A DNA stretch of 64,000 bases, taken from contig NC_047018.1 of NCBI RefSeq assembly GCF_902652985.1, positions 43,772,001 to 43,836,000 on the forward strand. Reading direction: 5' to 3'. The translations under genes and the position numbers were made by a program. Shown here in pieces: positions 1 to 52,965 of the stretch. The stretch is from Pecten maximus (lineage: Eukaryota). How positions within the stretch are numbered: the first letter of the stretch is position 1; each line of letters opens with the position of its first letter. The notes under the pieces were generated by a model. That model was not told the origin of the DNA. It did no database searches and worked only from the letters and a program-made list of their open reading frames with translations.

Positions 1-2252
1 TGCGTGTATCATCTGACAAACCAAAACACATGTTCTACAAAATAATGTTGGAAAACGAAACTGTTCAAAGAGTACAATACTTGAATATCCACATATCCAT
101 TTCAGGATATACATGTATATATTGGCAAACTTTCCATTCACTATCCAGACACACCCTACATTGCTAAAGGCCGTCGTATAAAAGCTGTCGTTGATATATA
201 CCTTGTGAATGTTTGTACTTATAGACAACGCGCCATTCAATCAGATTGTCCCCTACCTGAAAGATATGAACTCATTACTCATATGATGAGTTTGTCATAT
301 TTTACATACTAGTATGACGAGGACTGACACGGAATCGGCAGATGTACTTTTCACCGTGAAGTAAAAGGTGAGTTTGATTTGAAAATACAATCACAATAAA
401 ATAGATACGTGCTTCTGTAAAGATTTATTACAATTATTTGTCTTGTCATTATAAATTGAATTCTTGATTAAAATTCTTTCATACTTGCTTCAAAACTGCA
501 AGAACACAAAAAATATCAACACAGGAAATGGATGTTATCTTGGGGCAAAGGTCAGTATGTCTGGCGCTGATTGGTTACTTTAATCAACAAATTGTTGAAC
601 TTTTTATGACAATGGATCTTCAAAAGGACTGTCCGGTTGGAGTAAATGCAAGAGAGAGAAAAAGCTTTGCAGGATTCGAACCCGTTAAAGTGTCATCGGT
701 ATCTCTATGTCCCTATATGGATATCCACTGATCTGTAGTCAACGTTTACTTGGTCGGGTATTCACTATTTTTGTTATGGTACCTTCATTTCCGCAGCGCG
801 CATAGCAATCGCATTGTTTACACTATTCCCAATGATAATGATGTAGAATTTCTTTAAATCTATTTTTGAACCTTTTAGAAACCGTACGTGACAATTTTTG
901 AATATCATAATTAACAAAACGTGCAGAACATACTTTTAAAATGCTATAGAACAATTCTTATCGGATGAAAAATCTGGCCATAGTGTCGCATTGATAAATG
1001 TCGTTATCTTAGATATTTGATAATTGTACATAACAAGTGTGTATATTCTGTACCTGTAATACTATTCTCGAAAAAAACCTAATTTGTCATGGATGAGAAT
1101 ACGACTCGGGGATTAAAAAAAACAGCAATGAAATATTGATCTGTTGTTTAATCAATAATTACCTAATTTGCATATTCCTTTTATTAATAGTCATTAAGGT
1201 GTTAATGCTCTGTTTATAGAGCAAGGGTACCTAGATGTTTGATTGGCACATAGGGAGAAGAGAAAATAAAACGCAAATATATGATTATGAAATAAATATA
1301 CATATATATTATCTTATTTAATATTTGTAATTATATAATAATTGTTTCCATGAAATAGTGATTACATACAATTGGTTAAGTGTTGTGATATGCAGTACCT
1401 TCGTGTATATATGTTTGTCATTTCGTTATTTCTTTGTCGTCAGTGAACAATTTGAATAACACGTTATCCTTTGACGTTGGTGGCAAATTGCCCACCTTTA
1501 AAAGTAAAATTAGAAAGCAAAGGGAAAATAGAAAAAGAGAAAAGTTTTCAGTGGCGCGGGGTGCACACGCTTATTCACGCCTCAGTGCGCAGATATGTAA
1601 ATGAACGTAAAGCATAATGTGAGTTAGGATTGAGAAGCATCAAAATGTGTTTACAATCCTATATGAGATCTATATACCGGTTTCAAAGGTCTACTGGTGC
1701 TTTCGAAGCGTGAACCTATAGCTAGGTGTTCTTAAACAAATATTTAACATAGGCGGGCTAACAAATCGGTACTTTTTCAATAACATCGCATTATGAAGAT
1801 AATTGAGAAAGAAAATTCTTGATAATTTCTTCCCTCATGGCATGGTTTTCATAAAGGCAAAGTAAGTTTGGCCAATATTGTATATTGATTAAAATTACAA
1901 GCACGGGTTCACCTTGCTATATAAAGTAATGCTTGGATTGAAAAGATGTCGTCAAAAGACGAGAAAGTATGTCGGAAATGTAACATTATTTGATGTGGTT
2001 TTCTCACTTTATTGGGGACCGTGACATACAATCGACTTTATTTGAGTATTGTGTGATTATTAAGGTCGCCAATGATTCGTTCTTTTTACATAAGAAGCTA
2101 CATAAGATCGAACAGATTTGAAAAAAACAAAGAACTACCTATATAACGATAATTGGCCAAGGCAACAAGGACAGGGATATTCATTATTTGTAGTAATATA
2201 CAGTTGTACATTTAACTATGAAAAGAGATTTGAAAAAAAAAATCAATTAACT

Positions 2253-3064
2253 TAAGTCATTAGCAAGAAACTATAATCAATTAGCATGACACTCAAGTCA
2301 TTAGCAAGGGACTTAAAGTCATGACCATGAAACTAAATGTCATTATCAAGAAACGAAACTAAAAGTCATTCGCAAGGAATTCAAAGTCATTAGCAAAGGA
2401 ATTTTAAGTCATTATCAAAGAACCAAATGCCATTAGCAAGGAACTAAAAGTCATTAGCAGGGAACTTAAAGTCATATGCAAGGTACTAAGAAACAATAGC
2501 AAGGGACTAAATGAAATTAGCTAGGAACTAAAGGTCATAAGCAAGGAGCTAAACGTCATTAGTAAGGGAATAAAAGTCATTATCAAGGAGCCTAAAGTCA
2601 TAAACAAGGAACTAAAAGTAGGGAACTAAATGTCATTAGCATAGGAACTAAGTCATTAGCAAGGAACAAAAAATCATTAGCAAGGAACTAAAGGTCATTA
2701 GCAAGGGACTAAATGTAATTAACTGTGAACTAAAGGTCATAAGCAAGGAACTTAAACTCATTAGCAAGAAAATGAAAGCCATTAGCAAGACACTTAATGT
2801 CGTTAGCTAGGAACGAAAGGTCATAAGCAAGGAACTTAAGCCCATTAGCAAGAAAATGAAAGCCAATAGCAAGACACTTAATGTCGTTAGCTAGGAACTA
2901 AAGGTCATAAGCAAGGAACTAAAAGTCATTAGTAAGGAACTAAGTCATTTCCAAAAAACTCAAAAAAGTCATTAGCAAGAAACTATAACTCATTAGTAAA
3001 ACCATAAAAGTAATTAGCAAGGGACTTGAATTCATTAGTAAGGAGCTAAAAGTCATTAGCAAGA
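2253..3064. repeat. Degenerate ~21-22-bp minisatellite
   Basis: Repeating AAAGTCATTAGCAAGGAACT-like units. Confidence 0.9.
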
Positions 3065-3369
3065 ATATGAAATATTTTTAGTGGACATACATATCCTCGC
3101 GTATAGCAGCAACGTTTTTATACAGAAGAAACAGGACTCTTTATAATGTGAAAGGTTGATACTCAAATAGATATGAATTGTCGAATAGTCAGATTATCTG
3201 TAAATTCATGAATTATTTTTTAAAACAAAACATGCCAAATATATCTGATTCTCATTTTGACGAATCTTTATTAACGATGATTATTGTACATAAATGGCAC
3301 ATCTTGTGTTGTAAAGATACATGTAGGTGAAGAGCAAGTTGAAGTACTAATAAAAACGTGTGCATTTGT

Positions 3370-4450: not shown

Positions 4451-6439
4451 ATGTAAATCGTGTCGTGGTTCTGTATTTTAAATCTATCCTGTGTTACATC
4501 CATGCCTATAACTGTTTGCATTTTCATTTGTAATAGTGAGATTTACAAGAATCATTTATGCCTGTAGCTATTGTATTGTAAAAGAGGACTAGCAACTGTT
4601 GATTATTCGAAATGTATATTGCTTCTACAGCTTTTATCATCTTTATACAATAACTATGAATGCCATACAATAAATAGAATTCAACAGATCACAAAAACAT
4701 CGTGTATATGCTTTGAACAATTTTAATAATAACAAAGAAGGACTATTCTGGCCAAGGATGTCAAAAGTTTTCCTTGAATGTGACATTTAACAACAACATT
4801 GTAGGTACTCAAACAATATCTACGATAACACAATGATTTGGCAATAATGAAAAATTTCAAAATCCTTGGGTCCTTTTTCAAATTCCACATTCATATAACT
4901 GTCGTTACAACAATAAGAATGGAAAAATAACTAACAATGATTCTTAAGAAACAAGTTATATACTCACAGATCACTCTTAACCATAAGACTGTCGATAACT
5001 GGTCATCTCCATTATAACGAATTCTTTTTGATGTCTCTGCATCATAAACGCAGTCATTCGTATACTGTATAGTTGTTAATATTTGCGAGGAATTTAATTT
5101 CGCTATATTAGTGGTCATTGAATATACCGCGAAAATAAATACCCAGCAAATATTTATAATTTTAACAACTATACAAGTATACATTATATACAATTTTGAT
5201 GACAACAAGAGAAAAGATAACATTGGCTAGATCCATGTGACAAAAGTAATATTGGCTAAATCCACGTGACAAAAAATAATATTGCATGTTAATGTATACC
5301 CGCGCCTGACAAACTACCACACATAATATCACAATCAAACCATCGAACACTATCAGGACCAATGGTTCTCTTCGGAACAGTCAGATAATACATTTACATG
5401 TGTCATAGAAAAATAAATTTGAAATCTGTTTAAAATTAAGATTTTTGCAGTAAACTCAGCTGAACTTACGTTAAAGAGGCATGGATTAACTTTAATCAAT
5501 GGACATTAAACATATTCTTAAGTTATTGGTTCACCATTATAGGTGATTCTCGTATTGGAATAAATAATCAGATCCATGCAAATCAATTATTGTCATAATT
5601 CATAATAGAAAACATAAAAATGAAAGTGTTTTTTGTCGATGGCATTGCTCATTTGACAAGAAAATATTGGCTATAAAAGCGGAGAAAATAATCATGAAAT
5701 TTTGGCAGAAATATTTTTAAATGCAAGATCGGTATTACTGGTAAAAGACGATATCTTATATACATATATAATCATCACAGTAATGTAATTTATGAATAAA
5801 TTAATGATGTAATGTACAAGCCAACAATACAAAGGATTTGGTCCCATCTAGCCATACGGAGTATTAGTTGAAAGTCAATGGGCTTAACATATACACAAAG
5901 AGGCAGATACCTTGTAAACACAATTGGAATAAAAACTTACATGCGAAATACATGCACTTGTAATGAAGTTCGCCTACCACGAGGTCCGAATCATTAAATG
6001 ATGTTCTCAAAGATTCTGAATCCTGACTCACTGTATTCTCAGCACTCACTACCACGCTATTTTCATTCATATCATTACCCTTTGTGTACAAATATGTTCC
6101 ATATGAATACTTTTGACTGACATTCTTTCATCTATTAAATTACATGTACATTCACTTGCATAAATGCAACATTCCTTCCCCTAAGCATACAAAAAAATAC
6201 TGTGTCGATCATTGACTTGCTTGCGTATAAAGTTCATTCAATAATGATAACCCTTTCATGTACAAAGTTCAGTCGGAAATATCCGAACTACAAGGAATGG
6301 ATTGAAATTGAATACCGCGCGAAACAATGCTAACATACTATATATCACAGCAACAAACAAGAACAAGAAATAAAATGAAATAATGCAGTTCTCGCCAAAA
6401 AATGTTGAGACGAGATGCGTTGTCATGGTTACACTCCTT

Positions 6440-7320
6440 TCAAGCACATTTGCAGTCTTGAACAATCATATCAGCAAAGTCAGTAAATACTAAATTGTTA
6501 TAGGCGTCCTCGTGCAGGATTGTCAGGGGTTTGAATGACGATGGTATGCAACATGGTGCCGAGAAACGGGTAGGGTCCATTTTATGAAGAGTTGATTTGA
6601 TGCTTGTAAAAGTGTTCGCCATTTTAAATCGGTCCGGGCAAGTTCCTTCGCAGTGAAAGGCTTCATATTCTGTTGGAGCTATTACCCAATCCCAACCAAT
6701 GACTTGAAAATTGATTTGAGTTCTAAACCTACAACATCTCTCCTCTCCATCACCTTGAGTACAGTCTCGACGGCCAGCCTGTCGTTTGGCGCGTTTAAGA
6801 ATCGGTCGTTCCTCCGCATCCAATTTCAGTAATGGGAGAGAAGAGCCTGATGGATGCGATGGTATATGTAGATCTCTGCTGTCGTCATTGTGGCTATGTA
6901 AATTTCTTAACATTAAGTTCTCGTCGGCGAAAGAGAAGAGTTTTGTAACATTATGAGTATCTGATGATATCATAAGTCCGTGGTTTGACTCAGGGTCATT
7001 AATCCACCCACGTGCTGCTTCTGATAAATCGAAATCCTCCCATCCAGGTATTGAAATATCAATTGTCTTCGAGGATATTTGTTTTCCTTTCACTAATTTC
7101 ATATTTTCATTCTGCTCAATATTAAACACTTTGACGTCCATTAATGATTGCTGTCTTGTGTTTGAGTCAGAAAGATTTGTTTGTTTTTTTAATAACTGCA
7201 AAGTTGCGGAAAACACAATAAGTTCCCTGTATATATCCTTTGTGATTTTGTCTTGAATATCATAAAACAAAACTTGTCCATCCAGGTCACTGCTATCAGC
7301 TATCTGTTGTTTGCGGTAGC
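6440..7320 (-). CDS. TGF-beta superfamily ligand precursor, coding exon 2 (prodomain, furin site, 9-Cys mature domain; GDF15/Maverick/activin-myostatin-like)
   Basis: Acceptor cttgttacag|GC at 7320 matches the phase-1 donor (G+GC=Gly), giving a 1233-nt CDS / 410 aa. Prodomain motif GWEDFDLSEAARGW..NHGL; KRAKR cleavage; mature domain 6781..6443 (113 aa) with C..CC..CxGxC..CC..CxC cystine-knot pattern; stop TGA 6442-6440. Confidence 0.96.
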
Positions 7321-7823
7321 CTGTAACAAGTAATCATATTCCAATGTTATCAAATTGATACAACTAATAAATATCATAAAATCACACAATATGATATAGA
7401 ATTTCCGACCATTTATTCGAGAGACTGATAATCCCCGCAAATGCCATCCAAAGTTCAATAAAGATCTACATCACCATCATTATCAATTATTATCTCCCAT
7501 AGCAGATATAATACATTACTGACAGGTAAACAATGTATCGTGTAATTCAATCAGTGAGCTTCATAGGAAGGGGCTGTCCTAATCCCCCGTCCTCTAGTTT
7601 ATGTTACGTGATAATAATCCTAACATATTATATACTCTATATACTCTGTTTTAGGTATATTTCAACAATCCCTCTCTTTTTCACACTTATGTTATTTTTA
7701 CAAGAAAAGATATGTACTTGTTGTGCTTATTTAAGTATTTTGTTTGTATATGAGTGTTATCGTGTAAATTTTAAAGTGTGTTGTTGTTGTACCTTATTTT
7801 AAAGGACAATATTGTAGAGTAGA

Positions 7824-7824
<1 letters not shown>

Positions 7825-7863
<39 letters not shown>
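7825..7863. repeat. (CAT)n microsatellite in the TGF-beta intron
   Basis: About 13 CAT units. Confidence 0.95.
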
Positions 7864-9059
7864 TACAAATTATGTTTTCTTTAAATAGGGACCTTTTATC
7901 TTGCTTATCATGTCATTGAAAACATATATATCTAAAGTATTTCTATAGCATTCCACTACAATCCTGTTAAAATTTAGACCTAAATACGTCCCCATTGATC
8001 TCATCCCAATCATTGAATGATAAGATTAAGGGCCTATATATTTGTGTCTATCAACAGGCAAACTATATTCCTATAATCTCTGTCCTTAGTAGCAACTGTT
8101 TCTGTGATCCGCGCTAGGTAAGTATTTTGCACTCGTGCTATGTATGTATTTATATAAATATATACCCATACATAGAAGACGGGATGAATGTAAACAAGAG
8201 CTTCAATAACTGCTGAATGGTAAAGTTTAAACAGATGTGTATCGTTCTTTAGAATCTCATTTCTATCTAGTTATAGGACCGAGGTTTGACACCTAGCTAA
8301 ACCATCAATATCATTTGAAAGATTACTGTAACTCTTAAAAGCTTGTCTATTTAACATATTACACGTTTTAGCTGACAACGTTTTCTATTTGATCGCTCTG
8401 TGAGTCACCATAATGAAAAAGTGTGATAATGATTATTAACTATAATCAATAAAAAGAATGCGATGGTTTAGTTAATTCTAAATATCCCGACGTTTTGCTA
8501 ATTGAAATTATCCATTTCTGTTTAAAACTTACACTGTGTAGAGCTTAAAATCGTGTTTAAAAGACATTTTACAATGTGCTAATATTAGCATTGAACAGAT
8601 AAAGAAAACGATATACTACACTGACATTAACGTACTATTTCAATAAACTATATAAACTGTAAATAAAATTTATCGAAGTGATTATCTAATCTACATTCCA
8701 AGATCTTTGATCATGATGTATTAGTGATAATTGAAACTGACATCTACTATTACCTTTTAATGAGGATGTGGCAGTGCTAATCTAAACAGTTCCTAGGCTA
8801 AACACGTTTAATCGAAATTCTCTAGCATAATTTCAACTCATAAATGAGTTAATAAAAATGTCACAGAGCTAATTCAAATATTTCATCAATTAAACCTGTT
8901 TTATAGATGTATACATATATGTGTTTACATACAGAAATGTTTTTAATAGTATAGGATTTCCTAACAATAGTAGATGAAAGTACATTAAATGATGTTTTAA
9001 CAAAATCTGGTTGTCTTCTTTTCGATAAGAAAGTGTTATAGTATCATTACAGTATCCTT

Positions 9060-9255
9060 GATACATATAATTATATAGTATAATAGTAAATTATTTATCA
9101 TTAAATATTGTATAATATACTATATATAATATAATATATATAATATAGTATTATATATATGATAATTTATGATTCATATATAATATAGTATAATATATAT
9201 AATATATTATAATATATATGATAATTTATAATGTATATATTATATAGTATGATAT
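9060..9255. repeat. AT-rich low-complexity (TATAA-like) tract
   Basis: Almost pure A/T imperfect repeats. Confidence 0.8.
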
Positions 9256-11082
9256 TTATTTTGTAAAATAGCGCATACGTATGATCGAGTATCCATTTCA
9301 CAGTGGATGATGCGGTAGAGACGTGTTTATTGCCAAAACACAAGCTACTACTCTACGCAAGTCAAAGAGTAGACTCGTTATACATTGAACAGAAATGACG
9401 TGAGTCAATGTGAAAGACTATCCCTCGCAGCATTCCTCAATATAAACCTTTTAACAAGTTTTATTTTAAAAGTTATATTTATTACTTTAATGATAGTCAT
9501 CATTTTGAATCGCAGTGTAAATACTACAGCCATTGAACTAATGAAATTTGTTCGAATCCATTTAGCGTTATGTATCAATATGGCGAGGACACCTGCCTCC
9601 GGAATGCTTCTTACATTTTATTAGGAAATAAAGAGATGGGATTATCAGTAGTTATTGGAAAGTGTACGCCGGACGGACGACTTACTACGCACGACTGGTT
9701 CATGGAAAGTGAACTTAAGCGACTGTACTGAGTTCTATTTAAAAAGAGATTAGAGACGTAAGAACGCTAGATTTTCGATGGCATCCCGTCCTATTAATAA
9801 AAAGTGATGAGTTAAATGTATGTATATATATGGAGATTAAAGTGATTTTGTGGCGAGCCCACGTGTTGACAAGGTTTTCGCGCGTGGAATGGATATGCTC
9901 GGTTTCACTCAGTATTCTACGTCCATATTTGTGTATAAAGTCTTGCCAGGTAACTAGCGATTAAAATTCACTTTAAACGCAGGCATGCATTTACAACACA
10001 GGGCTAGCCGTACTATCTATATTCCGGAGCGATAAGGGACGTCATGCGGATGTCGCACATGTTTCAAATATTTCAACCACTAATAAATCCTTGTCCATAA
10101 TGATTGCCTTTCAAATATACGTCTCTGATGTATCTCCACTATCATACACAAGGGGCAGCACATTACAGTAAATGTTCATCGCATGCTGCAATTTTGTACA
10201 GGAATTTACATATGTGTTATGGTAAGCGTATTGTGGTGTCTACAGGTATAGAGCAGGTGCAAGCTAGCACTCTGACACCTGTGTAGGTCGATGGTTGGGC
10301 CTTTAGCATAGTGTTTTCATTGGGCTATGTGTGCAGTTGTGTTTACAATCGTTATGTAATTTAAAATTGAAAGACAAGGTAATGCCGTATCTAGACTTAA
10401 GTTAAATCTCTTGATAGATATATAAATATAAATACGTAAACAGGTTTATAACATCTCAAAGGGGTATATGAATGAATGAAAGGTGATCAAGAAACAAGAT
10501 GAATGATATTGAGTTTAAGAAGATATGTATACAGTCTTCAGTTAGAAAATGAACCAATACTGCCGATTAAGCAAAGATTCTGAAATGAATTATCACTGAA
10601 TGATGCATTGATAGGTAGTGATGCATATCCTGCTAGTCTCGGTAGGCTTAAGATGGTATCGGTATTCATATCTCGTTATGAAGTATTCAAATCATAATAA
10701 CTCTGGTTTGAATTATATGGAATGCTTTCATCATACACTATCTGTATAGATCCCCCTCTTTAACTATTGTTATGGCCGACATGAACTCTTACTTGAGTAC
10801 GCCATCAATTTATTGCTAAATCATTCTTTATTTAGACTTTTAACTCCAATATCGATTAATATACAAAGCACAACTTTACGTCGGTTGTAGATTTATCAAG
10901 AGTGTATTTTTATAACGTAGGAAAATCACACACGTTGGTAGCAACGCTTAAGGATAACATGATTACATGATTTAGCAGTACTCACGTGCTACACGTTTTA
11001 CCTACTCGAATATATATCAGCTCATCACATACTAATTAAGTAGAAAGTGAAAGTACACAATTATAGTTAAATGACCCCTTAC

Positions 11083-11434
11083 CTTTATAGGTATGCTGCA
11101 CCCTTTTGGATTCTCTCTCCATTTCTTCCCTGTCAGGTATATGCTGCATGTCGTTTTTACTAATGAGGTAATCCCTGAATTCACGTATCTTTTGACGTTT
11201 GGTTTCTATACTATGGGTAACGTTTGAAGCATTTGATGGAAGTGAATCCCCTATCTGTTCCAATATGCTTTGTTTAAAGGCCTCGATCCGAAGTTTTGAA
11301 ATGTCAACTTCTTTCTCAGCTTCTGACACCTGTTTGGAAGCTGACAATGCTGGTTTGCCTGTAACAATTGCTAAGTGTAATGCTAGTAGCAGGACCGTTA
11401 AAACCACGGCTCTACTTAAAACATATAATATCAT
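11083..11434 (-). CDS. TGF-beta superfamily ligand precursor, coding exon 1 (signal peptide and N-terminal prodomain)
   Basis: ATG at 11434-11432 with an in-frame TAG upstream; hydrophobic signal peptide MILYVLSRAVVLTVLLLALHLAIVTG; prodomain helix LRIEAFKQSILEQIG (cf. TGF-beta1 RIEAIRGQILSKL, myostatin RIEAIKIQILSKL); donor AAAG|GTAAGG after 11083, phase 1 (352 nt). Confidence 0.92.
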
Positions 11435-11640: not shown

Positions 11641-11817
11641 TTATATATATAAGGGGGTGTATACGTTTGAACTGTCACGATATCAGATGCCGGCTAGCCC
11701 CGCCCATAAACCGTGAATGAGAACCTTCACGTCCATGTGCTTCTGTTTATTTCACACGTAAAGCCGTACCTAACTTAGGCGTATACGTCTTCTGTGTATT
11801 CATTGGCTATGACGTCA
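11641..11817 (-). promoter_or_regulatory. Proximal promoter of the TGF-beta gene: TATA box, GC box, CCAAT box, CRE
   Basis: TATATATAA at 11641-11652 (~210 nt upstream of the ATG); GGGCGGGGC 11697-11705; CCAAT (ATTGG on +) 11802-11806; TGACGTCA 11810-11817. Order and spacing are typical of a Pol II promoter. Confidence 0.7.
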
Positions 11818-13502: not shown

Positions 13503-16500
13503 CTGACAATACACAATCTACCAGGTAACGGTCAGTCTTGGTAACTAACAATACACCATTTACCAGGTTACGATAAGTCTTGGTAACTAACAATACACCA
13601 TTTACCAGGTTACGATAAGTCTTGGTAACTGCCAATACACCATCTACCAGGTTACGTTCAGTCTTGGTAACTAACAATACACCATTTACCAGGTTACGAT
13701 AAGTCTTGGTAACTGCCAATACACCATCTACAAGGTTATGGTCAGTCTTGGTAACTAACAATACACCATCTACAAGGTTATGGTCAGTCTTGGTAACTGC
13801 CAATACACCATCTACAAGATTATGGTCAGTCTTGGTAACTGCCAATACACCATCTACCAGGTTACGATAAGTCTTGGTAACTGCCAATACACCATCTACA
13901 AGGTTACGGTCAGTCTTGGTAACTAACAATACACCATCTACCAGGTTACGGTCAGTCTTGGTAACTGACAATAAACCATCTACAAGGTTACGGTCAGTCT
14001 TGGTAACTGACAATAACAATCTACAAGGTTACGGTCAGTCTTGGTAACTAAAAATACACCATCTACAAGGTTACGGTCAGTCTTGGTAACTGACAATAAA
14101 GCATCTATAGGGTTACGGTCAGTCTTGATAACTGCCAATACACCATCTACCAGGTTACGATAAGTCTTGCTAACTGACAATACACCATTTACAAGGTTAC
14201 GGTCAGTCTTTCTAACTGACAATACACCATTTACAAGGTCACGGTCAGTCTTGGTAACTAATAATACGCCATCTACAAGGTTATGGTAAGTCTTGGTAAC
14301 TAACAATACACCATCTACAAGGTTATGGTCAGTCTTGGTAACTGCCAATACACCATTTAAAAGGTTACGGTCAGTCTTGATAACTGACAATACACCATCT
14401 ACCAGGTTACGGTCAGTCTTGGTAACTAACAATACACCTTCTACAAGGTTACGGTCAGTCTTGGTAACTAACAAAACACCATTTACAAGGTTACGGTCAG
14501 TCTTGATAACTGACAATACACCATCTACAAGGTTACGGTCAGTCTTGGTAACTAACAATACACTTTCTACAAGGTTACTGTCAGTCTTGGTAACTAACAA
14601 TACACCATCTACAAGGTTATGGTCAGTCTTGGTAACTGACAATACACCATCTACCAGGTTACGGTCAGTCTTGGTAACTGACCATAACCATCTACAAGGT
14701 TACGGTCAGTCTTGGTAACTAACAATACACCATCTACAAGGTTACGGTCAGTCTTGGTAACTAACAATACACCATCTACAAGGTTACGGTCAGTCTTGGT
14801 AACTAACAATACACCATCTACAAGGTTACGGTCAGTCTTGATAACTGACAATACACCTTCTATAAGGTTACTGTCAGTCTTGGTAACTAACAATACACCA
14901 TCTACAAGGTTACGGTCAGTCTTGGTAACTAACAATACACCATCTACAAGGTTATGGTCAGTCTTGATAACTGACAATACACCATCTACAAGGTTACGAT
15001 CAGTCTTGGTAACTAACAATACACCATCTACCAGGTTACGATAAGTCTTGGTAACTGCCAATACACCATCTACAAGGTTATGGTCAGTCTTGGTAACTAA
15101 CAATACACCATCTACCAGGTTATGGTCAGTCTTGGTAACTAACAATACACCATCTACCAGGTTACGATAAGTCTTGGTAACTGCCAATACACCATCTACA
15201 AGGTTATGGTCAGTCTTGGTAACTAACAATACACCATCTACCAGGTTACGATCAGTCTTGGTAACTGCCAATACACCATCTACAAGGTTATGGTCAGTCT
15301 TGGTAACTGACAATACACCATCTACAAGTTTATGGTCAGTCTTGGTAACTGCCAATACACCATCTACAAGGTTACGGTCAGTCTTGGTAACTAAAAATAC
15401 ACCATCTACAAGGTTATGGTCAGTCTTGGTAACTAACAATACACCATCTACAAGGTTATGGTCAGTCTTGGTAACTGCCAATACACCATTTACAAGGTTA
15501 CGGTCAGTCTTGATAACTGACAATACACCATCTACCAGGTTACGGTCAGTCTTGGTAACTAACAATACACCTTCTACAAGGTTACGGTCAGTCTTGGTAA
15601 CTAACAAAACACCATTTACAAGGTTACGGTCAGTCTTGATAACTGACAATACACCATCTACCAGGTTACGATCAGTCTTGGTAACTAACAATACACCATC
15701 TACCAGGTTACGGTCAGTCTTGGTAACTGACCATAACCATCTACAAGGTTACGATCAGTCTTGGTAACTGACCATAACCATCTATAAGGTTACGGTCAGT
15801 CTTGGTAACTAACAATACACCATCTACCAGGTTACGCTCAGTCTTGGTAACTAACAATACACCATCTACAAGGTTACGATCAGTCTTGATAACTGACAAT
15901 AACAATCTACAAGGTTACGGTCAGTCTTGGTAACTAACAATACACCATTTACCAGGTTGCGGTCAGTCTTGGTAACTAACAATACACCATCTACAAGGTT
16001 ATGGTCAGTCTTGGTAACTAACAATACACCATATACAAGGTTACGATATGCTTGGTAACTGATAATACACCATCTACCAGGTTACGGTCAGTCTTGGTAA
16101 CTGACAATACACCATCTACAAGGTTACGGTCAGTCTTGGTAACTAACAATACACCATCTACAAGGTTACGGTCAGTCTTGGTAAGTGACAATACACCATC
16201 TACAAGGTTACAACCAGTCTTGCTAACTGACAATACACCATTTACAAGGTTACGGTCAGTCTTGATAACTAACAATACACAATCTACCAGGTTATGGTCA
16301 GTCTTGGTAACTGACAATACACCATTTACAAGGTTACGATAAGTCTTGGTAACTGACAATACACTATCTACCAGGTTACGGGCAGTCTTGGTAACTAACA
16401 ATACACCATCTACCAGGTTACGGTCAGTCTTGGTAACTGCCAATACACCATCTACAAGGTTATGATCAGTCTTGGTAACTGACAATAACCATCTACGAGG

Positions 16501-19500
16501 TTATGGTCAATCTTGGTAACTGACAATACACCATCTACAAGGTTATGGTCAGTCTTGGTAACTGACAATACACCATTTACAAGGTTACGATCAGTCTTGG
16601 TAACTAACAATACACCATTTACAAGGTCACGGTCAGTCTTGGTAACTAACAATACACCATCTACAAGGTTACGGTCAGTCTTGGTAACTGACAATACACC
16701 ATTTACAAGGTTACGATCAGTCTTGGTAACTAACAATACACCATTTACAAGGTTACGGTCAGTCTTGGGAACTGCCAATACACCATTTACAAGGTTACGG
16801 TCAGTCTTGGGAACTGCCAATACACCATTTACAAGGTTACGGTCAGTCTTGGTAACTGACAATACACCATCTACAAGGTTACGGTCAGTCTTGGTAACTA
16901 ACAATACACCATCTACAAGGTTACGGTCAGTCTTGGTAACTAACAATACACCATCTACAAGGTTACGGTCAGTCTTGATAACTGACAATACACCTTCTAT
17001 AAGGTTACTGTCAGTCTTGGTAACTAACAATACACCATCTACAAGGTTACGGTCAGTCTTGGTAACTAACAATACACCATCTACAAGGTTATGGTCAGTC
17101 TTGATAACTGACAATACACCATCTACAAGGTTACGATCAGTCTTGGTAACTAACAATACACCATCTACCAGGTTACGATAAGTCTTGGTAACTGCCAATA
17201 CACCATCTACAAGGTTATGGTCAGTCTTGGTAACTAACAATACACCATCTACCAGGTTATGGTCAGTCTTGGTAACTGCCAATACACCATCTACCAGGTT
17301 ACGATCAGTCTTGGTAACTGCCAATACACCATCTACAAGGTTATGGTCAGTCTTGGTAACTGACAATACACCATCTACAAGTTTATGGTCAGTCTTGGTA
17401 ACTGCCAATACACCATCTACAAGGTTACGGTCAGTCTTGGTAACTAAAAATACACCATCTTAAAGGTTACGGTCAGTCTTGGTAACTGACAATACAGCAT
17501 ATATAGGGTTACGGTCAGTCTTGATAACTGCCAATACATCATCTACCAGGTTGCGATAAGTCTTGCTAACTGACAATACACCATTTACAAGGTTACGGTC
17601 AGTCTTGCTAACTGACAATACACCATTTACAAGGTCACGGTCAGTCTTGGTAACTAACAATACGCCATCTACAAGGTTATGGTCAGTCTTGGTAACTAAC
17701 AATACACCATCTACAAGGTTATGGTCAGTCTTGGTAACTGCCAATACACCATTTACAAGGTTACGGTCAGTCTTGATAACTGACAATACACCATCTACCA
17801 GGTTACGGTCAGTCTTGGTAACTAACAAAACACCATTTACAAGGTTACGGTCAGTCTTGATAACTGACAATACACCATCTACAAGGTTACGGTCAGTCTT
17901 GGTAACTAACAATACACCTTCTACAAGGTTACTGTCAGTCTTGGTAACTAACAAGACACCATCTACCAGGTTACGATCAGTCTTGGTAACTAACAATACA
18001 CCATCTACCAGGTTACGGTCAGTCTTGGTAACTGACCATAACCATCTACAAGGTTACGATCAGTCTTGGTAACTGACCATAACCATCTATAAGGTTACGG
18101 TCAGTCTTGGTAACTAACAATACACCATCTACCAGGTTACGGTCAGTCTTGGTAACTAACAATACACCATCTACAAGGTTACGATCAGTCTTGATAACTG
18201 ACAATAACAATCTACAAGGTTACGGTCAGTCTTGGTAACTAACAATACACCATTTACCAGGTTGCGGTCAGTCTTGGTAACTAACAATACACCATCTACA
18301 AGGTTATGGTCAGTCTTGGTAACTAACAATACACCATATACAAGGTTACGATATGCTTGGTAACTGATAATACACCATCTACCAGGTTACGGTCAGTCTT
18401 GGTAACTGACAATACACCATCTACAAGGTTACGGTCAGTCTTGGTAACTGACAATACACCATCTACAAGGTTACGGTCAGTCTTGGTAACTGACAATACA
18501 GCATCTATAGGGTTACGATCAGTCTTGGTAACTGACAATATACCATTTACAAGGTTACGGTCAGTCTTGCTAACTGACAACAACCATTTACAAGGTTACT
18601 GTCAGTCTTGATAACTAACAATACACAATCTACCAGGTTATGGTCTGTCTTGGTAACTGACCATACACCATCTACAAGGTTACAACCAGTCTTGCTAACT
18701 GACAATACACCATTTACAAGGTTACGGTCAGTCTTGATAACTAACAATACACAATCTACCAGGTTATGGTCAGTCTTGGTAACTGACAATACACCATTTA
18801 CAAGGTTACGATAAGTCTTGGTAACTGACAATACATTATCTACCAGGTTATGGTCAGTCTTGGTAACTGCCAATACACCATTTACAAGGTTACGGTCAGT
18901 CTTGATAACTGACAATACACCATCTACCAGGTTACGATCAGTCTTGGTAACTAACAATACACCTTCTACAAGGTTACGGTCAGTCTTGGTAACTAACAAA
19001 ACACCATTTACAAGGTTACGGTCAGTCTTGATAACTGACAATACACCATCTACAAGGTTACGGTCAGTCTTGGTAACTAACAATACACCTTCTACAAGGT
19101 TACTGTCAGTCTTGGTAACTAACAAGACACCATCTACCAGGTTACGATCAGTCTTGGTAACTAACAATACACCATCTACCAGGTTACGGTCAGTCTTGGT
19201 AACTGACCATAACCATCTACAAGGTTACGATCAGTCTTGGTAACTGACCATAACCATCTATAAGGTTACGGTCAGTCTTGGTAACTAACAATACACCATC
19301 TACCAGGTTACGGTCAGTCTTGGTAACTAACAATACACCATCTACAAGGTTACGATCAGTCTTGATAACTGACAATAACAATCTACAAGGTTACGGTCAG
19401 TCTTGGTAACTAACAATACACCATTTACCAGGTTGCGGTCAGTCTTGGTAACTAACAATACACCATTTACCAGGTTGCGGTCAGTCTTGGTAACTAACAA

Positions 19501-22500
19501 TACACCATCTACAAGGTTATGGTCAGTCTTGGTAACTAACAATACACCATATACAAGGTTACGATATGCTTGGTAACTGATAATACACCATCTACCAGGT
19601 TACGGTCAGTCTTGGTAACTGACAATACACCATCTACAAGGTTACGGTCAGTCTTGGTAACTGACAATACACCATCTACAAGGTTACGGTCAGTCTTGGT
19701 AACTGACAATACAGCATCTATAGGGTTACGATCAGTCTTGGTAACTGACAATATACCATTTACAAGGTTACGGTCAGTCTTGCTAACTGACAACAACCAT
19801 TTACAAGGTTACTGTCAGTCTTGATAACTAACAATACACAATCTACCAGGTTATGGTCTGTCTTGGTAACTGACCATACACCATCTACAAGGTTACAACC
19901 AGTCTTGCTAACTGACAATACACCATTTACAAGGTTACGGTCAGTCTTGATAACTAACAATACACAATCTACCAGGTTATGGTCAGTCTTGGTAACTGAC
20001 AATACACCATTTACAAGGTTACGATAAGTCTTGGTAACTGACAATACACTATCTACCAGGTTACGGGCAGTCTTGGTAACTAACAATACACCATCTACCA
20101 GGTTACGGTCAGTCTTGGTAACTGCCAATACACCATCTACAAGGTTATGATCAGTCTTGGTAACTGACAATAACCATCTACGAGGTTATGGTCAGTCTTG
20201 GTAACTGACAATACACCATCTACAAGGTTATGGTCAGTCTTGGTAACTGACAATACACCATTTACAAGGTTACGATCAGTCTTGGTAACTAACAATACAC
20301 CATTTACAAGGTCACGGTCAGTCTTGGTAACTAACAATACACCATCTACAAGGTTACGGTCAGTCTTGGTAACTGACAATACACCATTTACAAGGTTACG
20401 ATCAGTCTTGGTAACTAACAATACACCATTTACAAGGTTACGGTCAGTCTTGGGAACTGCCAATACACCATTTACAAGGTTACGGTCAGTCTTGGGAACT
20501 GCCAATACACCATTTACAAGGTTACGGTCAGTCTTGGTAACTGACAATACACCATCTACAAGGTTACGGTCAGTCTTGGTAACTAACAATACACCATTTA
20601 CAAGGTCACGGTCAGTCTTGGTAACTAACAATACACCATCTACAAGGTTACGGTCAGTCTTGGTAACTGACAATACACCATTTACAAGGTTACGATCAGT
20701 CTTGGTAACTAACAATACACCATTTACAAGGTTACGGTCAGTCTTGGGAACTGCCAATACACCATTTACAAGGTTACGGTCAGTCTTGGGAACTGCCAAT
20801 ACACCATTTACAAGGTTACGGTCAGTCTTGGTAACTGACAATACACCATCTACAAGGTTACGGTCAGTCTTGGTAACTAACAATACACCATCTACAAGGT
20901 TACGGTCAGTCTTGGTAACTAACAATACACCATCTACAAGGTTACGGTCAGTCTTAGTAACTAACAATACACCTTCTACAAGGTTACTGTCAGTCTTGGT
21001 AACTAACAAGACACCATCTACCAGGTTACGATCAGTCTTGGTAACTAACAATACACAATCTACCAGGTTATGGTCAGTCTTGGTAACTGACAATACACCA
21101 TTTACAAGGTTACGATAAGTCTTGGTAACTGACAATACACTATCTACCAGGTTACGGGCAGTCTTGGTAACTAACAATACACCATCTACCAGGTTACGGT
21201 CAGTCTTGGTAACTGCCAATACACCATCTACAAGGTTATGATCAGTCTTGGTAACTGACAATAACCATCTACGAGGTTATGGTCAGTCTTGGTAACTGAC
21301 AATACACCATCTACAAGGTTATGGTCAGTCTTGGTAACTGACAATACACCATTTACAAGGTTACGATCAGTCTTGGTAACTAACAATACACCATTTACAA
21401 GGTCACGGTCAGTCTTGGTAACTAACAATACACCATCTACAAGGTTACGGTCAGTCTTGGTAACTGACAATACACCATTTACAAGGTTACGATCAGTCTT
21501 GGTAACTAACAATACACCATTTACAAGGTTACGGTCAGTCTTGGGAACTGCCAATACACCATTTACAAGGTTACGGTCAGTCTTGGGAACTGCCAATACA
21601 CCATTTACAAGGTTACGGTCAGTCTTGGTAACTGACAATACACCATCTACAAGGTTACGGTCAGTCTTGGTAACTAACAATACACCATCTACAAGGTTAC
21701 GGTCAGTCTTGGTAACTAACAATACACCATCTACAAGGTTACGGTCAGTCTTAGTAACTAACAATACACCATCTACAAGGTTACGATCAGTCTTGGCAAC
21801 TAACAATACACAATCTACCAGGTTATGGTCAGTCTTGGTAACTGACAATACACTATCTACCAGGTTACGGTCAGTCTTGGCAACTAACAATACACAATCT
21901 ACCAGGTTATGGTCAGTCTTGGTAACTGACAATACACCATTTACAAGGTCACGGTCAGTCTTGCTAACTGACAATACACCATTTACAAGGTTACGATAAG
22001 TCTTGGTAACTGACAATACACCATCTACAAGGTTACGAGCAGTCTTGGTAACTAACCATACACCATCTACAAGGTTACGGTCAGTCTTGGTAACTAACAA
22101 TACACCATCTACAAGGTTACGGTCAGTCTTGGTAACTAACCATACACCATCTACAAGGTTATGGTCAGTCTTGGTAACTAACAATACACCATCTACAAGG
22201 TTACGGTCAGTCTTGGTAACTAACCATACACCATCTACAAGGTTACGATAAGTCTTGGTAACTGACAATACACCGTCTACAAGGTTACGGTCAGTCTTGA
22301 TAACTGACAATAATACACCATCTACCAGGTTACGGTCAGTCTTGGTAACTGCCAATACACCATTTACAAGGTTACGGTCAGTCTTGGTAACTAACAATAC
22401 ACCATCTACAAGGTTACGGTCAGTCTTGGTAACTAACAATACACCATCTACCAGGTTACGATATGCTTGGTAACTGATAATACACAATCTACCAGGTTAA

Positions 22501-23186
22501 GATCAGCCTTGGTAACTGACAATACACCATCTAACAGGTTACGGTCAGTCTTGGTAACTGACAATACACCATCTACAAGGTTACGGTCAGTCTTGGTAAC
22601 TGACAATACACCATCTACCAGGTTACGATATGCTTGGTAACTGATAATACACAATCTACCAGTTTAAGATCAGCCTTGGTAACTGACAATACACCATCTA
22701 CAAGGTTACGTCAACCTTGGTTAAAATCCACAATGTTACGTTCAACCAAGAAAACTGAAGTCATTTGTGTATACCATCTCCAAGGTTACGCTCAAACTTG
22801 GGTATACTATCTACATGTACAAGGTTACGGTCAACCTATATAACTGACAGTTCGCCATCTAAAAGGTTACAGTCAATCATGAGAACTGACATTATATCTA
22901 CCACAAGGTTACGGTCAACCTTGAGAACTGAAAATACACAATCTGAAAGGTTACTGTCAACCCTGTGAAGTATAAGGTAAACCTCTGGAACTGACAGTTA
23001 AGCATCTACAGGGTTACGGTCTACCCAGAAAACAGACAGTGTATCATCTACGAGGTTAGGTCAACTTTGGTCACTGACAATACACCAACTACAAGGGCTA
23101 CGGTAAGACTTGTCAACTGATAGTAATGTCATCTACAAGGTTAGCTCAACCTTGGACACTTACAATACACCATCTACAAGGTTGCG
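13503..23186. repeat. 42-bp satellite array (~220+ units) with higher-order duplications
   Basis: Unit AATACACCATCTACAAGGTTACGGTCAGTCTTGGTAACTGAC; homogeneous to ~22710, then degenerate to ~23186; identical variant blocks recur at kb-scale offsets. Confidence 0.97.
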
Positions 23187-41053: not shown

Positions 41054-41786
41054 TGTTTGTTTGTTTGTTTGACGGGTTGAACGTCCTCGTAACAGCCAAG
41101 GTCATTTGAGGACGAGTGCCAAGGTCACACCAACAGCCAGGGTCATTTGAGGACGAGTGCCAAGGTGACACCAACAGCCAGGGTCATTTGAGGACGAGTG
41201 TCAAGGTGACACCTGGAGTAAAGGTCATTTGAGGACGAGTGCCAAGGTGACACCTGGAGTTAAGGTCATTTGAGGACGAGTGCCAAGGTGAAACCTGGAG
41301 TAAAAGTCACTTGAGGACGAGTGCCAAGGTGACACCTAGAGTAAAGGTCATTTGAGGACGAGTGTCAAGGTCACATCAACAGCCAAGGTCATTTGAGGAC
41401 GAGTGCCAAGGTCACACCAACAGCCAGGGTCATTTGAGGACGAGTGCCAAGGTCACACCAACAGCCAGGGTCATTTGAGGACGAGTGTCAAGGTGACACC
41501 TGGAGTAAAGGTCATTTGAGGACGAGTGCCAAGGTGACACCTGGAGTTAAGGTCATTTGAGGACGAGTGCCAAGGTGAAACCTGGAGTAAAGGTCACTTG
41601 AGGACGAGTGCCAAGGTGACACCTAGAGTAAAGGTCATTTGAGGACGAGTGTCAAGGTCACATCAACAGCCAAGGTCATTTGAGGACGAGTGTCAAGATG
41701 ACACCTGGAGTAAAGGTCATTTGAGGACTAGTGTCAAGGTCCCATCAACAGCCAAGGTCATTTGAGGACGAGTGTCAAGGTCACAT
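41054..41786 (-). repeat. SINE-type 3' tail followed by a 41-bp satellite (~17 units, 7-mer higher-order repeat)
   Basis: (TTTG)n tail, AACGTCC..TAACAGCCAAGGTCATTT, then units AACAGCCAGGGTCATTTGAGGACGAGTGCCAAGGTCACACC / TGGAGTAAAGGTC..; a rare variant recurs at a 287-bp offset (41290 and 41577). Confidence 0.9.
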
Positions 41787-42584
41787 CTTGAGTAAGAAAA
41801 CAAAACACAGAGCGACAGAGCAGTGAGGAAACAAAGGAAAGGTTTAAGATCCAAAATGATAAATGAAGGCATGAATGGAGGCAGAAATGGAGGCAACTTT
41901 TAGTTGCGTTTTACGATCATCATGCAGTGAGATACAACGGGCCTTAGTTTTGGCTTTCCAATGTCACCAGAACCAAGACAACTGAGAAACACCTCGACCA
42001 TTTTACAATCCAACATAATGCTAAGGAGGGAGCATTCATTGTGCCTACATTATACCTACATATACACAATGTAAGCATACAATGTCTTTTTTTATTGGCT
42101 TATTAGTGTTAGAGAAATTTTTACTGATACAATAATGTAACAATTCTTAATCAGTAAGCCTTATAACTCCCTTACCTTTTGTTTTTGTTCTAGAGCTCAA
42201 ATTATGAGACGAGGTTGGAACGAAGTTAACCTTTCGTTAGGGGGTACAAATAAGACAACCACATGTGGATTTTTAGATGACAATAGGAATATCTATATTA
42301 TCCACAGGCGTCTGAATCTGCTTAGTACTCTTGGACATTTTGTTGAACACCACAGAGTATTCCTATAACTTTTTTTCGGTGTACAGTTCATGAACGTTGA
42401 GAAAACGGGAATGATTTCGGCCATGTCGCATCGGCGTCCCCGCCATGTGAACGCCGACACGGCGACAATGCCTCATGCGACAAATTATAGCCCCCCCCCC
42501 CCCCCCCCCCCCCCCGATACAAAAGGGCGACAGAATTTTTGTGGCACTGTCGCATAATTTTGTCGCATAGCGCGTTCATTTATC

Positions 42585-50700: not shown

Positions 50701-52585
50701 CTCATATACACCCCAATCCTTCACACCAGATTCTCCCTCATATACATCCCAATCCTCCACACCAGAAATACACACCAGAGTCTCCCTCATATACACCCCA
50801 AACATCCACACCAGAAATACACACCAGAGTCTCCCTCATATACATCCCAATCCTCCACACCAGAACTACACACCAGTCTCCCTCATATACACCCCAATCC
50901 TCCACACCAGAGTCTCCCTCATATACACCCCAATCCTCCACACCAGAAATACACACCAGAGTCTCCCTCATATACACCCCAAACATCCACACCAGAGTCT
51001 CCCTCTTATACACCCCAATCCTCCACACCAGAGTCTCCCTCATATACACCCCAATCCTCCACACCAGAAATACACACTAGAGTCTCCCTCATATACACCC
51101 CAAACATCCACACCAGAGTCTCCCTCTTATACACCCCAATCCTCCACACCAGAGTCTCCCTCATATACACCCCAATCCTCCACACCAGAGTCTCCCTCTT
51201 ATACACCCCAATCCTCCACACCAGAAATACACACCAGAGTCTCCCTCATATACACCCCAACCCTCCACACCAGAAATACACACCAGATTTTCCCTCATAT
51301 ACACCCCAATCCTCCACACCAGAAATACACACCAGAGTCTCCCTCATATACACCCCAACCCTCCACACCAGAAATACACACCAGAGTCTCCCTCATATAC
51401 ACCCCAATCCTCCACACCAGTCTCCCTCATATACACCCCAATCCTCCACACCAGTCTCCCTCATATACACCCCAATCCTCCACACCAGTCTCCCTCCTAT
51501 ACATCCCAATCCTCCACACCAGAGTCTCCCTCATATACACCCCAATCCTCCACACCAGAAATACACACCAGAGTCTCCCTCATATACACCCCAATCCTCC
51601 ACACCAGTCTCCCTCCTATACATCCCAATCCTCCACACCAGTCTCCCTCCTATACATCCCAATCCTCCACACCAGAAATACACACCAGAGTCTCCCTCAT
51701 ATACACCCCAATCCTCCACACCAGTCTCCCTCCTATACATCCCAATCCTCCACACCAGTCTCCCTCATATACACCCCAATCCTCCACACCAGAAATACAC
51801 ACCAGAGTCTCCCTCATATACACCCCAATCCTCCACACCAGAAATACACACCAGATTCTCCCTTATATACACCCCAATCCTCCACACCAGAGTTCCCCCC
51901 ATATACACCCCAATCCTCCACACCAGAACTACACACCAGTCTCCCTCATATACACCCCAATCCTCCACACCAGTCTCCCTCATATACACCCCAATCCTCC
52001 ACACCAGAAATACACACCAGTCTCCCTCATATACACCCCAATCCTCCACACCAGAGTCTCCCTCATATACACCCCAATCCTCCACAGCAGAGTCTCCCTC
52101 ATATACACCCCAATCCTCCACAGCAGAGTCTCCCTCATATACACCCCAATCCTCCACACCAGAAATACACACCAGATTCTCCCTCCTATACACCCCAATC
52201 CTCCACACCAGAAATACACACCAGATTCTCCCTCATATACACCCCAACCCTCCACACCAGAGTCTCCCTCATATACACCCCAACCCTCCACACTAGAAAT
52301 ACACACCAGATTCTCCCTCCTATACACCCTAATCCTCCACACCAGAAATACACACCAGAGTCTCCCTCATATACATCCCAATCCTCCACACCAGAGTCTC
52401 CCTCATATACACCCCAATCCTCCACACCAGAACTACACACCAGTCTCCCTCATATACACCCCAATCCTCCACACCAGAACTACACACCAGTCTCCCTCAT
52501 ATACACCACAATCCTCCACACCAGTCTCCCTCCTTTACATCCCAATCCTCCACACCAGATATTAACCTCATAATCTCCCTCATAC
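50701..52585. repeat. C-rich modular satellite (34-36-bp core with optional 13-bp insert)
   Basis: CATATACACCCCAATCCTCCACACCAG(AG)TCTCCCT with optional AAATACACACCAG. Confidence 0.95.
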
Positions 52586-52965
52586 ACACCACATCGTATA
52601 TTATTACCAATATTGTTTTCAAGTTTCTTGTTACAGAAATATATAAACAAAAACTGATCACTTATTTTGCCTAAATCTAGTATATTTATTGCTTTAATTC
52701 CTTGTCAATCTCGAAATTCTCAAATAACTCTACCCAATAAACATTTAATATAGTGTTTAAGGTGTGCACTGGACAAAAATGGTTATACAATAAGAATTCG
52801 ATCCCGGGGGTGTCCTTGGGCGCGATTGTGAAGTTAACCCTATAGTATTGCAAGAACACGTTCTCGTTAAATCTCGCCCAAACGACGAGAACACGACCGA
52901 GAACAAGATGGAGGTCACCATGCGGGGAGTTAGTTTATAGAGACAAACTAGTACTGGTTCGTCGG

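Follow-up and report, generated by a model that had tools for sequence, protein, structure and literature searches.

Mammalian GDF15 acts through GFRAL and RET. The Panda/Maverick/GDF15 family of TGF-beta ligands was defined in 2015 and has been known to span the bilaterians since then (PMC4564238), and Drosophila Maverick is assigned to it both there and by Viswanathan et al., 2024 (PMC11239237). The family tree of the latter includes the Pecten maximus protein XP_033738705.1 as "pecten Panda-like", while the scallop cluster VII ligands termed "GDF15-like" (TGFB-07) by Zhang et al., 2024 (PMC10763453) are its orthologs from other species. A search of Zhang et al. for the term "maverick" gave no match, and neither Maverick nor Panda appears in the portion of its reference list examined. 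The gene and its family membership are already known in print, and the novelty implied by an earlier note on this DNA is not supported, with the family known across bilaterians since 2015 and the exact protein in the 2024 tree.

The window analyzed here is a 64-kb stretch of P. maximus DNA (contig NC_047018.1, positions 43,772,001 to 43,836,000), in which positions 6440-11434 of the minus strand hold an intact, spliced two-exon TGF-beta-type ligand gene. The coding part of exon 1 (11083..11434; 352 nt with a GT donor at 11082) covers amino acids 1-117 plus one nucleotide, including the likely signal peptide and the N-terminal prodomain, and that of exon 2 (6440..7320; 881 nt including the stop) encodes the prodomain arm, furin site, mature domain, and stop. 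The sole intron between them (7321..11082; 3762 nt) is GT-AG and in phase 1. The spliced coding sequence of 1233 nt translates letter for letter into a 410-aa protein (P0004) identical to XP_033738705.1. The splice junction is visible as a contig loose end that leaves the genomic sequence at the acceptor and runs on into exon 1 sequence in two of four runs (X1 and X15), whose near-identical rows count as one dataset and whose RNA status is a guess; contig cover across the intron is sparse. A likely 3' UTR on the same strand (5200..6439) extends past 5200, as a single contig is unbroken over 5200-7074 in runs presumed to be RNA. The likely proximal promoter (11644..11817, minus strand) is predicted from a TATA-like element at ~11651, a GC box at 11705, a CCAAT box at 11806, and a CRE palindrome at 11810-11817, among which only the GC box is rare within the window. 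Stress elements in this promoter do not count as evidence, because the window holds eight copies of the CRE and HRE-like sites are no more frequent than background.

The product has the architecture of a TGF-beta superfamily ligand, with a cystine-knot domain behind a furin site, a prodomain, and a signal peptide (the last by sequence only). Matches to Pfam TGF_beta (PF00019; E 1.4e-24) and TGFb_propeptide (PF00688; E 1e-9) were far beyond chance. All features lie on the minus strand. The likely signal peptide (about aa 1-26; 11357..11434) has a hydrophobic N-terminus that forms a helix at residues 2-24 in the AlphaFold model, and cleavage is presumed. It is followed by the prodomain alpha-1 ("latency") helix (aa 38-61; 11252..11323), a RAKR furin-type site (aa 294-297; 6782..6793) that is probably cleaved and whose R294 never varies across 19 aligned relatives, at least 90% of which also have R297, and the mature domain (6443..6781). 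As the earlier note had described, the latter comprises 113 aa with nine cysteines (304, 313, 314, 341, 345, 374, 375, 407, and 409, of which Cys374 is the retained dimer-forming residue), the single intron is in phase 1, the protein lacks RGD, and the quoted motifs are present; the human GDF15 string it quoted also agrees with PDB 6q2j. No cysteine occurs elsewhere in the protein, leaving the prodomain without any. The helix is predicted in the model, and the family profile aligns it with the same helix of pro-myostatin, in keeping with the note's myostatin-like reading, and of pro-activin; exon 1 by itself had no PDB match and the link appears only with the profile. As pro-activin shares the alpha-1 helix, a latent complex of the TGF-beta type is a putative state here. 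The structure model matched pro-myostatin, pro-TGF-beta2, and pro-activin, while the ESM Atlas gave generic TGF-beta clusters only, with low recognition, and was uninformative on subfamily.

Phylogenetic analysis indicated that the gene almost certainly encodes a scallop ligand of the Panda/Maverick/GDF15 family. In full-length trees (40 rows, 352 columns), the family and vertebrate GDF15 formed one clade with support of 100/98 (LG+G4 and LG+C20) apart from myostatin, and the clade was recovered by FastTree at SH-like 98 from 154 mature-domain rows; the mature domain alone in 62 rows gave just 89/80. Together with the two published phylogenies (PMC4564238; PMC11239237), these trees bear out the GDF15/Maverick-related lineage proposed in the note. 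Tree rows were picked by similarity to the query and did not comprise fly Maverick, Paracentrotus lividus Panda, oyster "GDF2" CAD67714, TGF-beta, Lefty, inhibin-alpha, GDNF ligands, vertebrate activin, or vertebrate myostatin. Chelicerate members (sea spider and tick) fell inside the clade, as did a Diadema protein (P0160) with Panda marks. A five-row arthropod-group profile intended as a fly anchor retrieved 40 proteins, none of which was named Maverick, and the grouping with Drosophila Maverick follows PMC4564238 and PMC11239237. P0004 was the single family member among 12 ligand rows from the P. maximus genome. A further sequence character of the subfamily, present in P0004, is common to myostatin, activin, and TGF-beta and is therefore necessary but insufficient for assignment.

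That the protein is a diverged paralog of myostatin/GDF8-11, activin, or BMP, with a likeness to GDF15 gained by convergence, is very improbable and already largely refuted. Pro-myostatin was both the best PDB match of the family profile and the best fold match of the model, in a match set containing no pro-GDF15 chain for comparison, and the top mature-domain match was GDF5 (92.8 bits vs. 84.4 for GDF15). Naming the protein after this best PDB match was set aside, since union with GDF5/6/7 is rejected (AU p 0.0004). Placement inside myostatin, which the note had named as decisive against its reading, was rejected on full length (AU p 0.027), whereas the mature domain by itself left it standing (p 0.188). 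The scallop also has its own activin and BMP genes and a separate myostatin (L006) that sits in the myostatin clade at 99-100 support, excluding P0004, and the scallop survey (PMC10763453) concurs with the two published phylogenies. Orthologs carry the pipeline names BMP2-like, GDF8-like, BMP7, and dbl-1-like, mislabeling that the note had anticipated, and the RefSeq label of XP_033738705.1 is "BMP2-like"; such labels are corrected by the family placement.

Vertebrate GDF15 shared the clade with P0004 in all trees along with the nine-cysteine pattern, and mature-domain identity averaged 38.5% to 43 GDF15-clade rows vs. 33.9% to six myostatin rows. Exclusive sister status with vertebrate GDF15 was neither shown nor rejected (p 0.134). 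The two differ in that P0004 retains an entire myostatin-like prodomain including its alpha-1 helix, which is largely lost from a colugo GDF15 row, and in a knuckle Thr where most GDF15s have Val. Among scallops, AiTGFB-07 and CfTGFB-07 (PMC10763453 supplement), among the matches listed, have this motif too and resemble P0007/P0005 in sequence, and exon 2 identity to a four-species scallop set was 73-77%. Synteny with vertebrate GDF15 was weak: five of six neighbor families searched were located, of which Jun and SSDP (2/5) lie on the ligand's chromosome C4 at 6.4 and 3.2 Mb from the gene, ELL and UPF1 on C9, and ISYNA1 on C18, while PGPEP1 was not found by an insensitive exon-by-exon genome search. 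A crude composition-score scan found no GDF15 neighbor within 100 kb either side, and the 23 of 3393 ORFs from these 200 kb of flanks that were passed to Pfam matched C-type lectin, EGF-like, and retroelement pieces only.

Receptor use was considered from the type II receptor knuckle, where Thr384 (6521..6523, minus strand) is equivalent to BMP2 Ser88 and Panda Pro461, a site where Ser/Thr goes with ActRII agonism and Pro with antagonism (PMC11239237). That study gives mollusc members Ser at this position and predicts them to be agonists, whereas P0004 has Thr, as do 14 of 23 mollusc-group rows; Ser and Thr are handled alike there. Thr384, the short beta6-beta7 loop, and both retained Trp of the type I W-x-x-W motif, which is eroded in Maverick (PMC11239237), favor reading the protein as an ActRII agonist. 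A scallop ActRII ectodomain exon was identified at C2:48357472, with top PDB matches to ActRIIB/A at 52.8 bits vs. BMPRII at 34.5. The predicted complex of the ligand dimer with scallop ActRII lends weak support: it scored 0.52 vs. 0.00 for the best of three controls, with runs concurring in at least 89% of contacts and a partner pLDDT of at least 78. In this score range (at most 0.60), however, just 5 of 78 solved complexes passed the benchmark mark, as did each of the four mismatches that passed at all. The pass may also reflect memory, since activin, BMP, and GDF11 complexes with ActRII have been solved. Thr occurs at the knuckle in 7 of 43 vertebrate-GDF15-clade rows as well and, as mammalian GDF15 uses GFRAL/RET, does not discriminate between receptors.

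On the type I side, the wrist residue Leu51 of BMP2 is reported to be missing from the family, whose binding to type I receptors may therefore be poor, and overexpression of Panda did not strongly activate Smad1/5/8 (PMC4564238). By alignment, P0004 also has no Leu51, its pre-helix loop being shorter than that of GDF5 and without Leu, with Phe349 the hydrophobic residue closest to the missing position. Scallop orthologs were expressed very weakly or not at all in adult tissues, with changes under heat plus hypoxia in two species (PMC10763453).

The locus is, on balance, best explained as encoding a probably secreted, furin-cut, dimeric family ligand that would act as an ActRII agonist. After secretion and signal-peptide removal, processing at RAKR would release a disulfide-linked dimer to which the prodomain may stay bound, without integrin (RGD) activation. 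The dimer would likely be an agonist at an activin type II receptor, signaling with a type I receptor and Smads, and ActRII-type agonism is somewhat favored as a main route; ortholog expression suggests use as a low-baseline, stress-regulated signal. An additional RET route may exist, as in fly Maverick.

A Panda-like antagonist, binding ActRII without signaling and restricting Nodal in the early embryo, is quite improbable. The scallop ligand shares its family and a single intron with sea-urchin panda (PMC4564238), and Nodal and ActRII genes are present in the scallop. Yet none of the three antagonist marks, all of which the aligned Diadema row shows, occurs in P0004, which has no Pro at the knuckle, no insertion in the beta6-beta7 loop, and an intact Trp motif, and the change of Pro to Ser at the knuckle made Panda an agonist (PMC11239237). 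An adult or stress role of the scallop ligand, as opposed to the maternal role of Panda, is suggested.

Alternatively, the protein may be mainly a RET ligand requiring a GFR-like co-receptor, as for vertebrate GDF15 and partly fly Maverick, serving as a stress or neural/gut signal; this is a credible but not favored possibility. A RET ortholog is encoded in the P. maximus genome (RET_CRD E 6.6e-18 at C1:4453980), with exons for its cadherin-like, transmembrane, and tyrosine-kinase parts following in order across ~50 kb and a kinase exon whose ten best PDB matches were all RET (61.5 bits vs. 45.3 for KIT); a RET_CLD4 search gave two matches, both below cut-off. Fly Maverick is reported to be a ligand of Ret, alongside which it uses canonical receptors (PMC13232516), and RET use in two distant family branches would make an ancestral link parsimonious. 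A mussel haemocyte transcript annotated as GDF15, a putative ortholog, rose 11.4-fold after LPS (PMC7773633). Against this, fly Gfrl failed to mediate Ret phosphorylation in cis (PMC3527400), sea-urchin Panda binds ACVRII (PMC11239237), and the genome searches proposed in the note, which recovered RET, detected no GFR-like or GFRAL-type co-receptor such as mammalian GDF15 uses: PF02351 gave one match from one candidate, a single-exon GAS1, and the scallop GAS1 protein retrieved only itself. The co-receptor search is insensitive, as fly Gfrl has more than 20 exons and the same exon-by-exon search missed pyroglutamyl peptidase. The note's suggestion of GFR-like/RET rather than classical receptors is neither supported nor refuted by these results, in which the knuckle residue and the weakly supported complex fit ActRII. 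A stress-induced GDF15-like axis of ligand, as yet unfound GFR-like co-receptor, and RET, with ActRII also usable, is somewhat doubtful. If true, GDF15-RET signaling would be an ancestral bilaterian system that arose before the GFRAL of vertebrates and before the GDNF ligands, with the scallop protein as an intermediate that uses both receptors.

The gene itself is ordinary, being annotated and already placed in the family in print. The three studied family members use different routes, namely ActRII antagonism in the sea urchin, canonical receptors and Ret in the fly, and GFRAL/RET in the mammal, and no study testing the receptor of a mollusc member was found in the literature searched. Since P. 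maximus encodes ActRII as well as RET and its ligand has a knuckle of the agonist type, the protein offers a direct means of asking which of these routes is ancestral.

The minus-strand gene at window positions 6440-11434 comprises exon 1 (11434-11083) and exon 2 (7320-6440) separated by a phase-1 GT-AG intron of 3762 nt, and its spliced 1233-nt frame encodes 410 aa identical to P0004, deposited as "bone morphogenetic protein 2-like [Pecten maximus]" (XP_033738705.1). TGF_beta and TGFb_propeptide (Pfam) both scored above cut-off, the 113-aa domain C-terminal to RAKR holds all nine cysteines of the ligand, and RGD was absent from the whole 410-aa product, confirming the single intron, nine-cysteine mature domain, and lack of RGD described in the earlier note; the human GDF15 string given there was also correct according to PDB 6q2j. 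In two of four runs, which are probably one dataset and whose RNA nature is a guess, a contig departs from the genome at the exon 2 acceptor and runs into exon 1 letters. This splice junction is a modest addition of the present analysis. A 9.2 kb minisatellite (13503-22721; 42-bp unit, 220 copies, 90% matches) begins approximately 2 kb upstream of the start codon and yields long spurious ORFs, with other tandem arrays at 2249-3065, 41097-41793, 50722-52593, and 58900-61588 (units, as listed, of 21/42, 41, 36/49, and 33/45 bp). The CRE palindrome occurred eight times in the window versus 0.77 expected from shuffles (11810, 23914, 28461, 30818, 43426, 43459, 44314, and 53674), two of the eight being inside a tandem repeat.

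Placement of the scallop ligand in the Panda/Maverick/GDF15 family is already known. Haillot et al. 2015 (PMC4564238) defined one subfamily of Panda, Drosophila Maverick, oyster "GDF2-like," and vertebrate GDF15 that also includes hemichordate and amphioxus "myostatin-like" genes, while Viswanathan et al. 2024 (PMC11239237) list the present protein as "pecten Panda-like: XP_033738705.1," term the family "not well-resolved," and predict an agonist role for mollusc members. Orthologs from three scallops form cluster VII "GDF15-like" in Zhang et al. 2024 (PMC10763453), and Maverick is already handled as the GDF15-like ligand of the fly (PMC13690580). The GDF15/Maverick-related lineage proposed in the earlier note was therefore correct, yet in print beforehand. 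Table 1 of PMC10763453 gives AiTGFB-07 as 459 aa and AiTGFB-08 as 406 aa and supplement S1 gives AiTGFB-07 as the 406-aa ortholog, such that the labels seem exchanged for that one species.

HMMER found 2605 matches among 1.84 billion representatives, and the best 150 were taken; entries retrieved for 20 of these (4 without a name) included oyster, abalone, clam, Lingula, amphioxus, hemichordate, sea spider, tick, Diadema, shark, lamprey, alewife gdf15, and colugo GDF15, plus GDF8-like and GDF5 outgroups. Trees were built from rows chosen for similarity to the scallop ligand and without fly Maverick, TGF-beta, Lefty, GDNF, vertebrate activin, and vertebrate myostatin. With 154 mature domains (17 duplicate or partial rows removed, 11 scallop paralogs added), FastTree grouped the ligand with every vertebrate GDF15 row in a clade of 104 rows (support 98) and separated a myostatin clade including the scallop's own myostatin (support 97). 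Family support dropped to 89/80 in IQ-TREE with 62 hand-picked mature domains, where the AU topology test ruled out union with GDF5/6/7 (p 0.0004) and tolerated union with myostatin (p 0.188). The family clade reached 100/98 under both LG+G4 and LG+C20 with 40 hand-picked full-length rows (352 columns), where union with myostatin was ruled out (AU p 0.027), so that the GDF8/11 placement named in the earlier note as contrary evidence was rejected on full length; the tree did not recover a clade restricted to mollusc members and vertebrate GDF15, and the test did not reject one (p 0.134). The mature domain's top PDB match was GDF5 (92.8 bits vs. 84.4 for GDF15), which counts against the GDF15-family reading.

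The dimer-forming cysteine was missing in 11 of 23 mollusc-group rows, including P0008; P0018, P0020, P0071, P0072, P0092, P0104, P0107, P0119, P0142, and P0151, near the abalone protein and without this cysteine, are mostly unnamed, vary in their knuckle residue, which is Pro in one of them, and are possibly an expanded, non-covalent sub-lineage. GDF15-clade proteins from shark and other vertebrates (P0036, P0054, P0067, P0069, and neighbors) are annotated BMP2/BMP4, and the shark row retains the first prodomain helix and Thr at the knuckle. At L003/L004 (G000:C1:8801199-8802797), a pair of Nodal-like mature domains 1290 bases apart is identical except for one residue, the second frame being shorter; either tandem duplication or an assembly artefact may account for the pair.

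GDF15, JUND, SSBP4, ISYNA1, ELL, UPF1, and PGPEP1 are grouped on chicken chromosome 28 (PMC7379350). Five of six neighbor families searched were located in the scallop genome: Jun at C4:37.40 Mb and SSDP at C4:40.62 Mb, the latter through a short match of low complexity, on the contig of the ligand gene (43.78 Mb), ELL and UPF1 on C9, and ISYNA1 on C18. The chance of at least two of the first four families sharing the contig was 0.018, its weight lowered by the fifth family lying elsewhere, and the arrangement is a weak addition that only hints at GDF15-type synteny. C-type lectin exons, an EGF-like exon (likely a membrane protein), and a retroelement fragment occurred 50-90 kb past the window end (L056:9265-9957, L058:5643-5927, L060:8454-8900, and L056:1924-3421).

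Modeled by AlphaFold from a 19-row alignment (mean pLDDT 73), the ligand resembles pro-myostatin, pro-TGF-beta2, and pro-activin, with low whole-chain TM-scores because the domains are placed differently. The first prodomain helix aligns to that of pro-myostatin, as the earlier note's myostatin/TGF-beta-type latency helix implied, and likewise to that of pro-activin, therefore indicating a full prodomain rather than latency as such. Thr384 occupies the knuckle site that is Ser88 in BMP2 and Pro461 in Panda, the beta6-beta7 loop is short, and the type I motif retains both Trp residues, in contrast to the Diadema row with Pro and an insertion; an antagonist Panda was ruled out by these published criteria. 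Finding Thr in place of Ser at this site is a modest addition. As Thr occurred in 14 of the 23 rows from the mollusc group and in 7 of the 43 from the vertebrate GDF15 clade, it alone cannot separate ActRII from GFRAL use.

Mammalian GDF15 signals via GFRAL/RET, and the main rival to ActRII use, less likely than not, is that the scallop ligand signals by RET with a GFR-like co-receptor. A RET ortholog, also a modest addition, was located at G000:C1:4427652-4483146 (L018, L022-L027) with exons for cadherin-like, transmembrane, and kinase segments arranged in order, a cysteine-rich domain (Pfam, E 6.6e-18), and a kinase exon nearest to RET (61.5 bits vs. 45.3 for KIT). Fly Maverick reportedly uses both the canonical receptors and Ret (PMC13232516; PMC7017013; bioRxiv 10.64898/2026.10.11.758319). 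LPS induced 11.4-fold a mussel transcript annotated as GDF15, a possible ortholog (PMC7773633). RET was recovered from the GFRAL/GfrL and RET search suggested earlier, and no GFR-like co-receptor was found by a genome domain search insensitive to many-exon genes, its sole GDNF/GAS1 (PF02351) match being a GAS1 ortholog that is encoded in a single exon and carries two GFR-like domains (L017:1093-1872; G000:C9, about 36.559 Mb); this is no proof of absence because fly Gfrl has many exons (PMC3527400) and the search missed pyroglutamyl peptidase. A literature search, with most subscription journals outside its reach, found no published receptor test of any mollusc member.

Signaling via ActRII, whose ectodomain exon lies at C2:48357472, is weakly supported by a predicted ligand-dimer/ActRII complex scoring 0.52 (best of three controls 0.00), with runs sharing at least 89% of contacts and partner pLDDT of at least 78. 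In the benchmark, the mark was reached by 51 of the 78 solved complexes and by 2 of the 108 mismatches; scores of 0.60 or under included only 5 of the 78 but all 4 of the mismatches that passed. The score may reflect the predictor's training because like complexes are already solved. Cluster VII genes were reported as silent or barely expressed in adult scallop tissues, with expression altered by combined heat and hypoxia in two species (Zhang et al. 2024, PMC10763453). Most likely, at slightly better than even chances, the scallop ligand would be secreted, cleaved at RAKR, and dimerized via Cys374 to act as an agonist through ActRII and a type I receptor, and would be kept at a low baseline under stress control.
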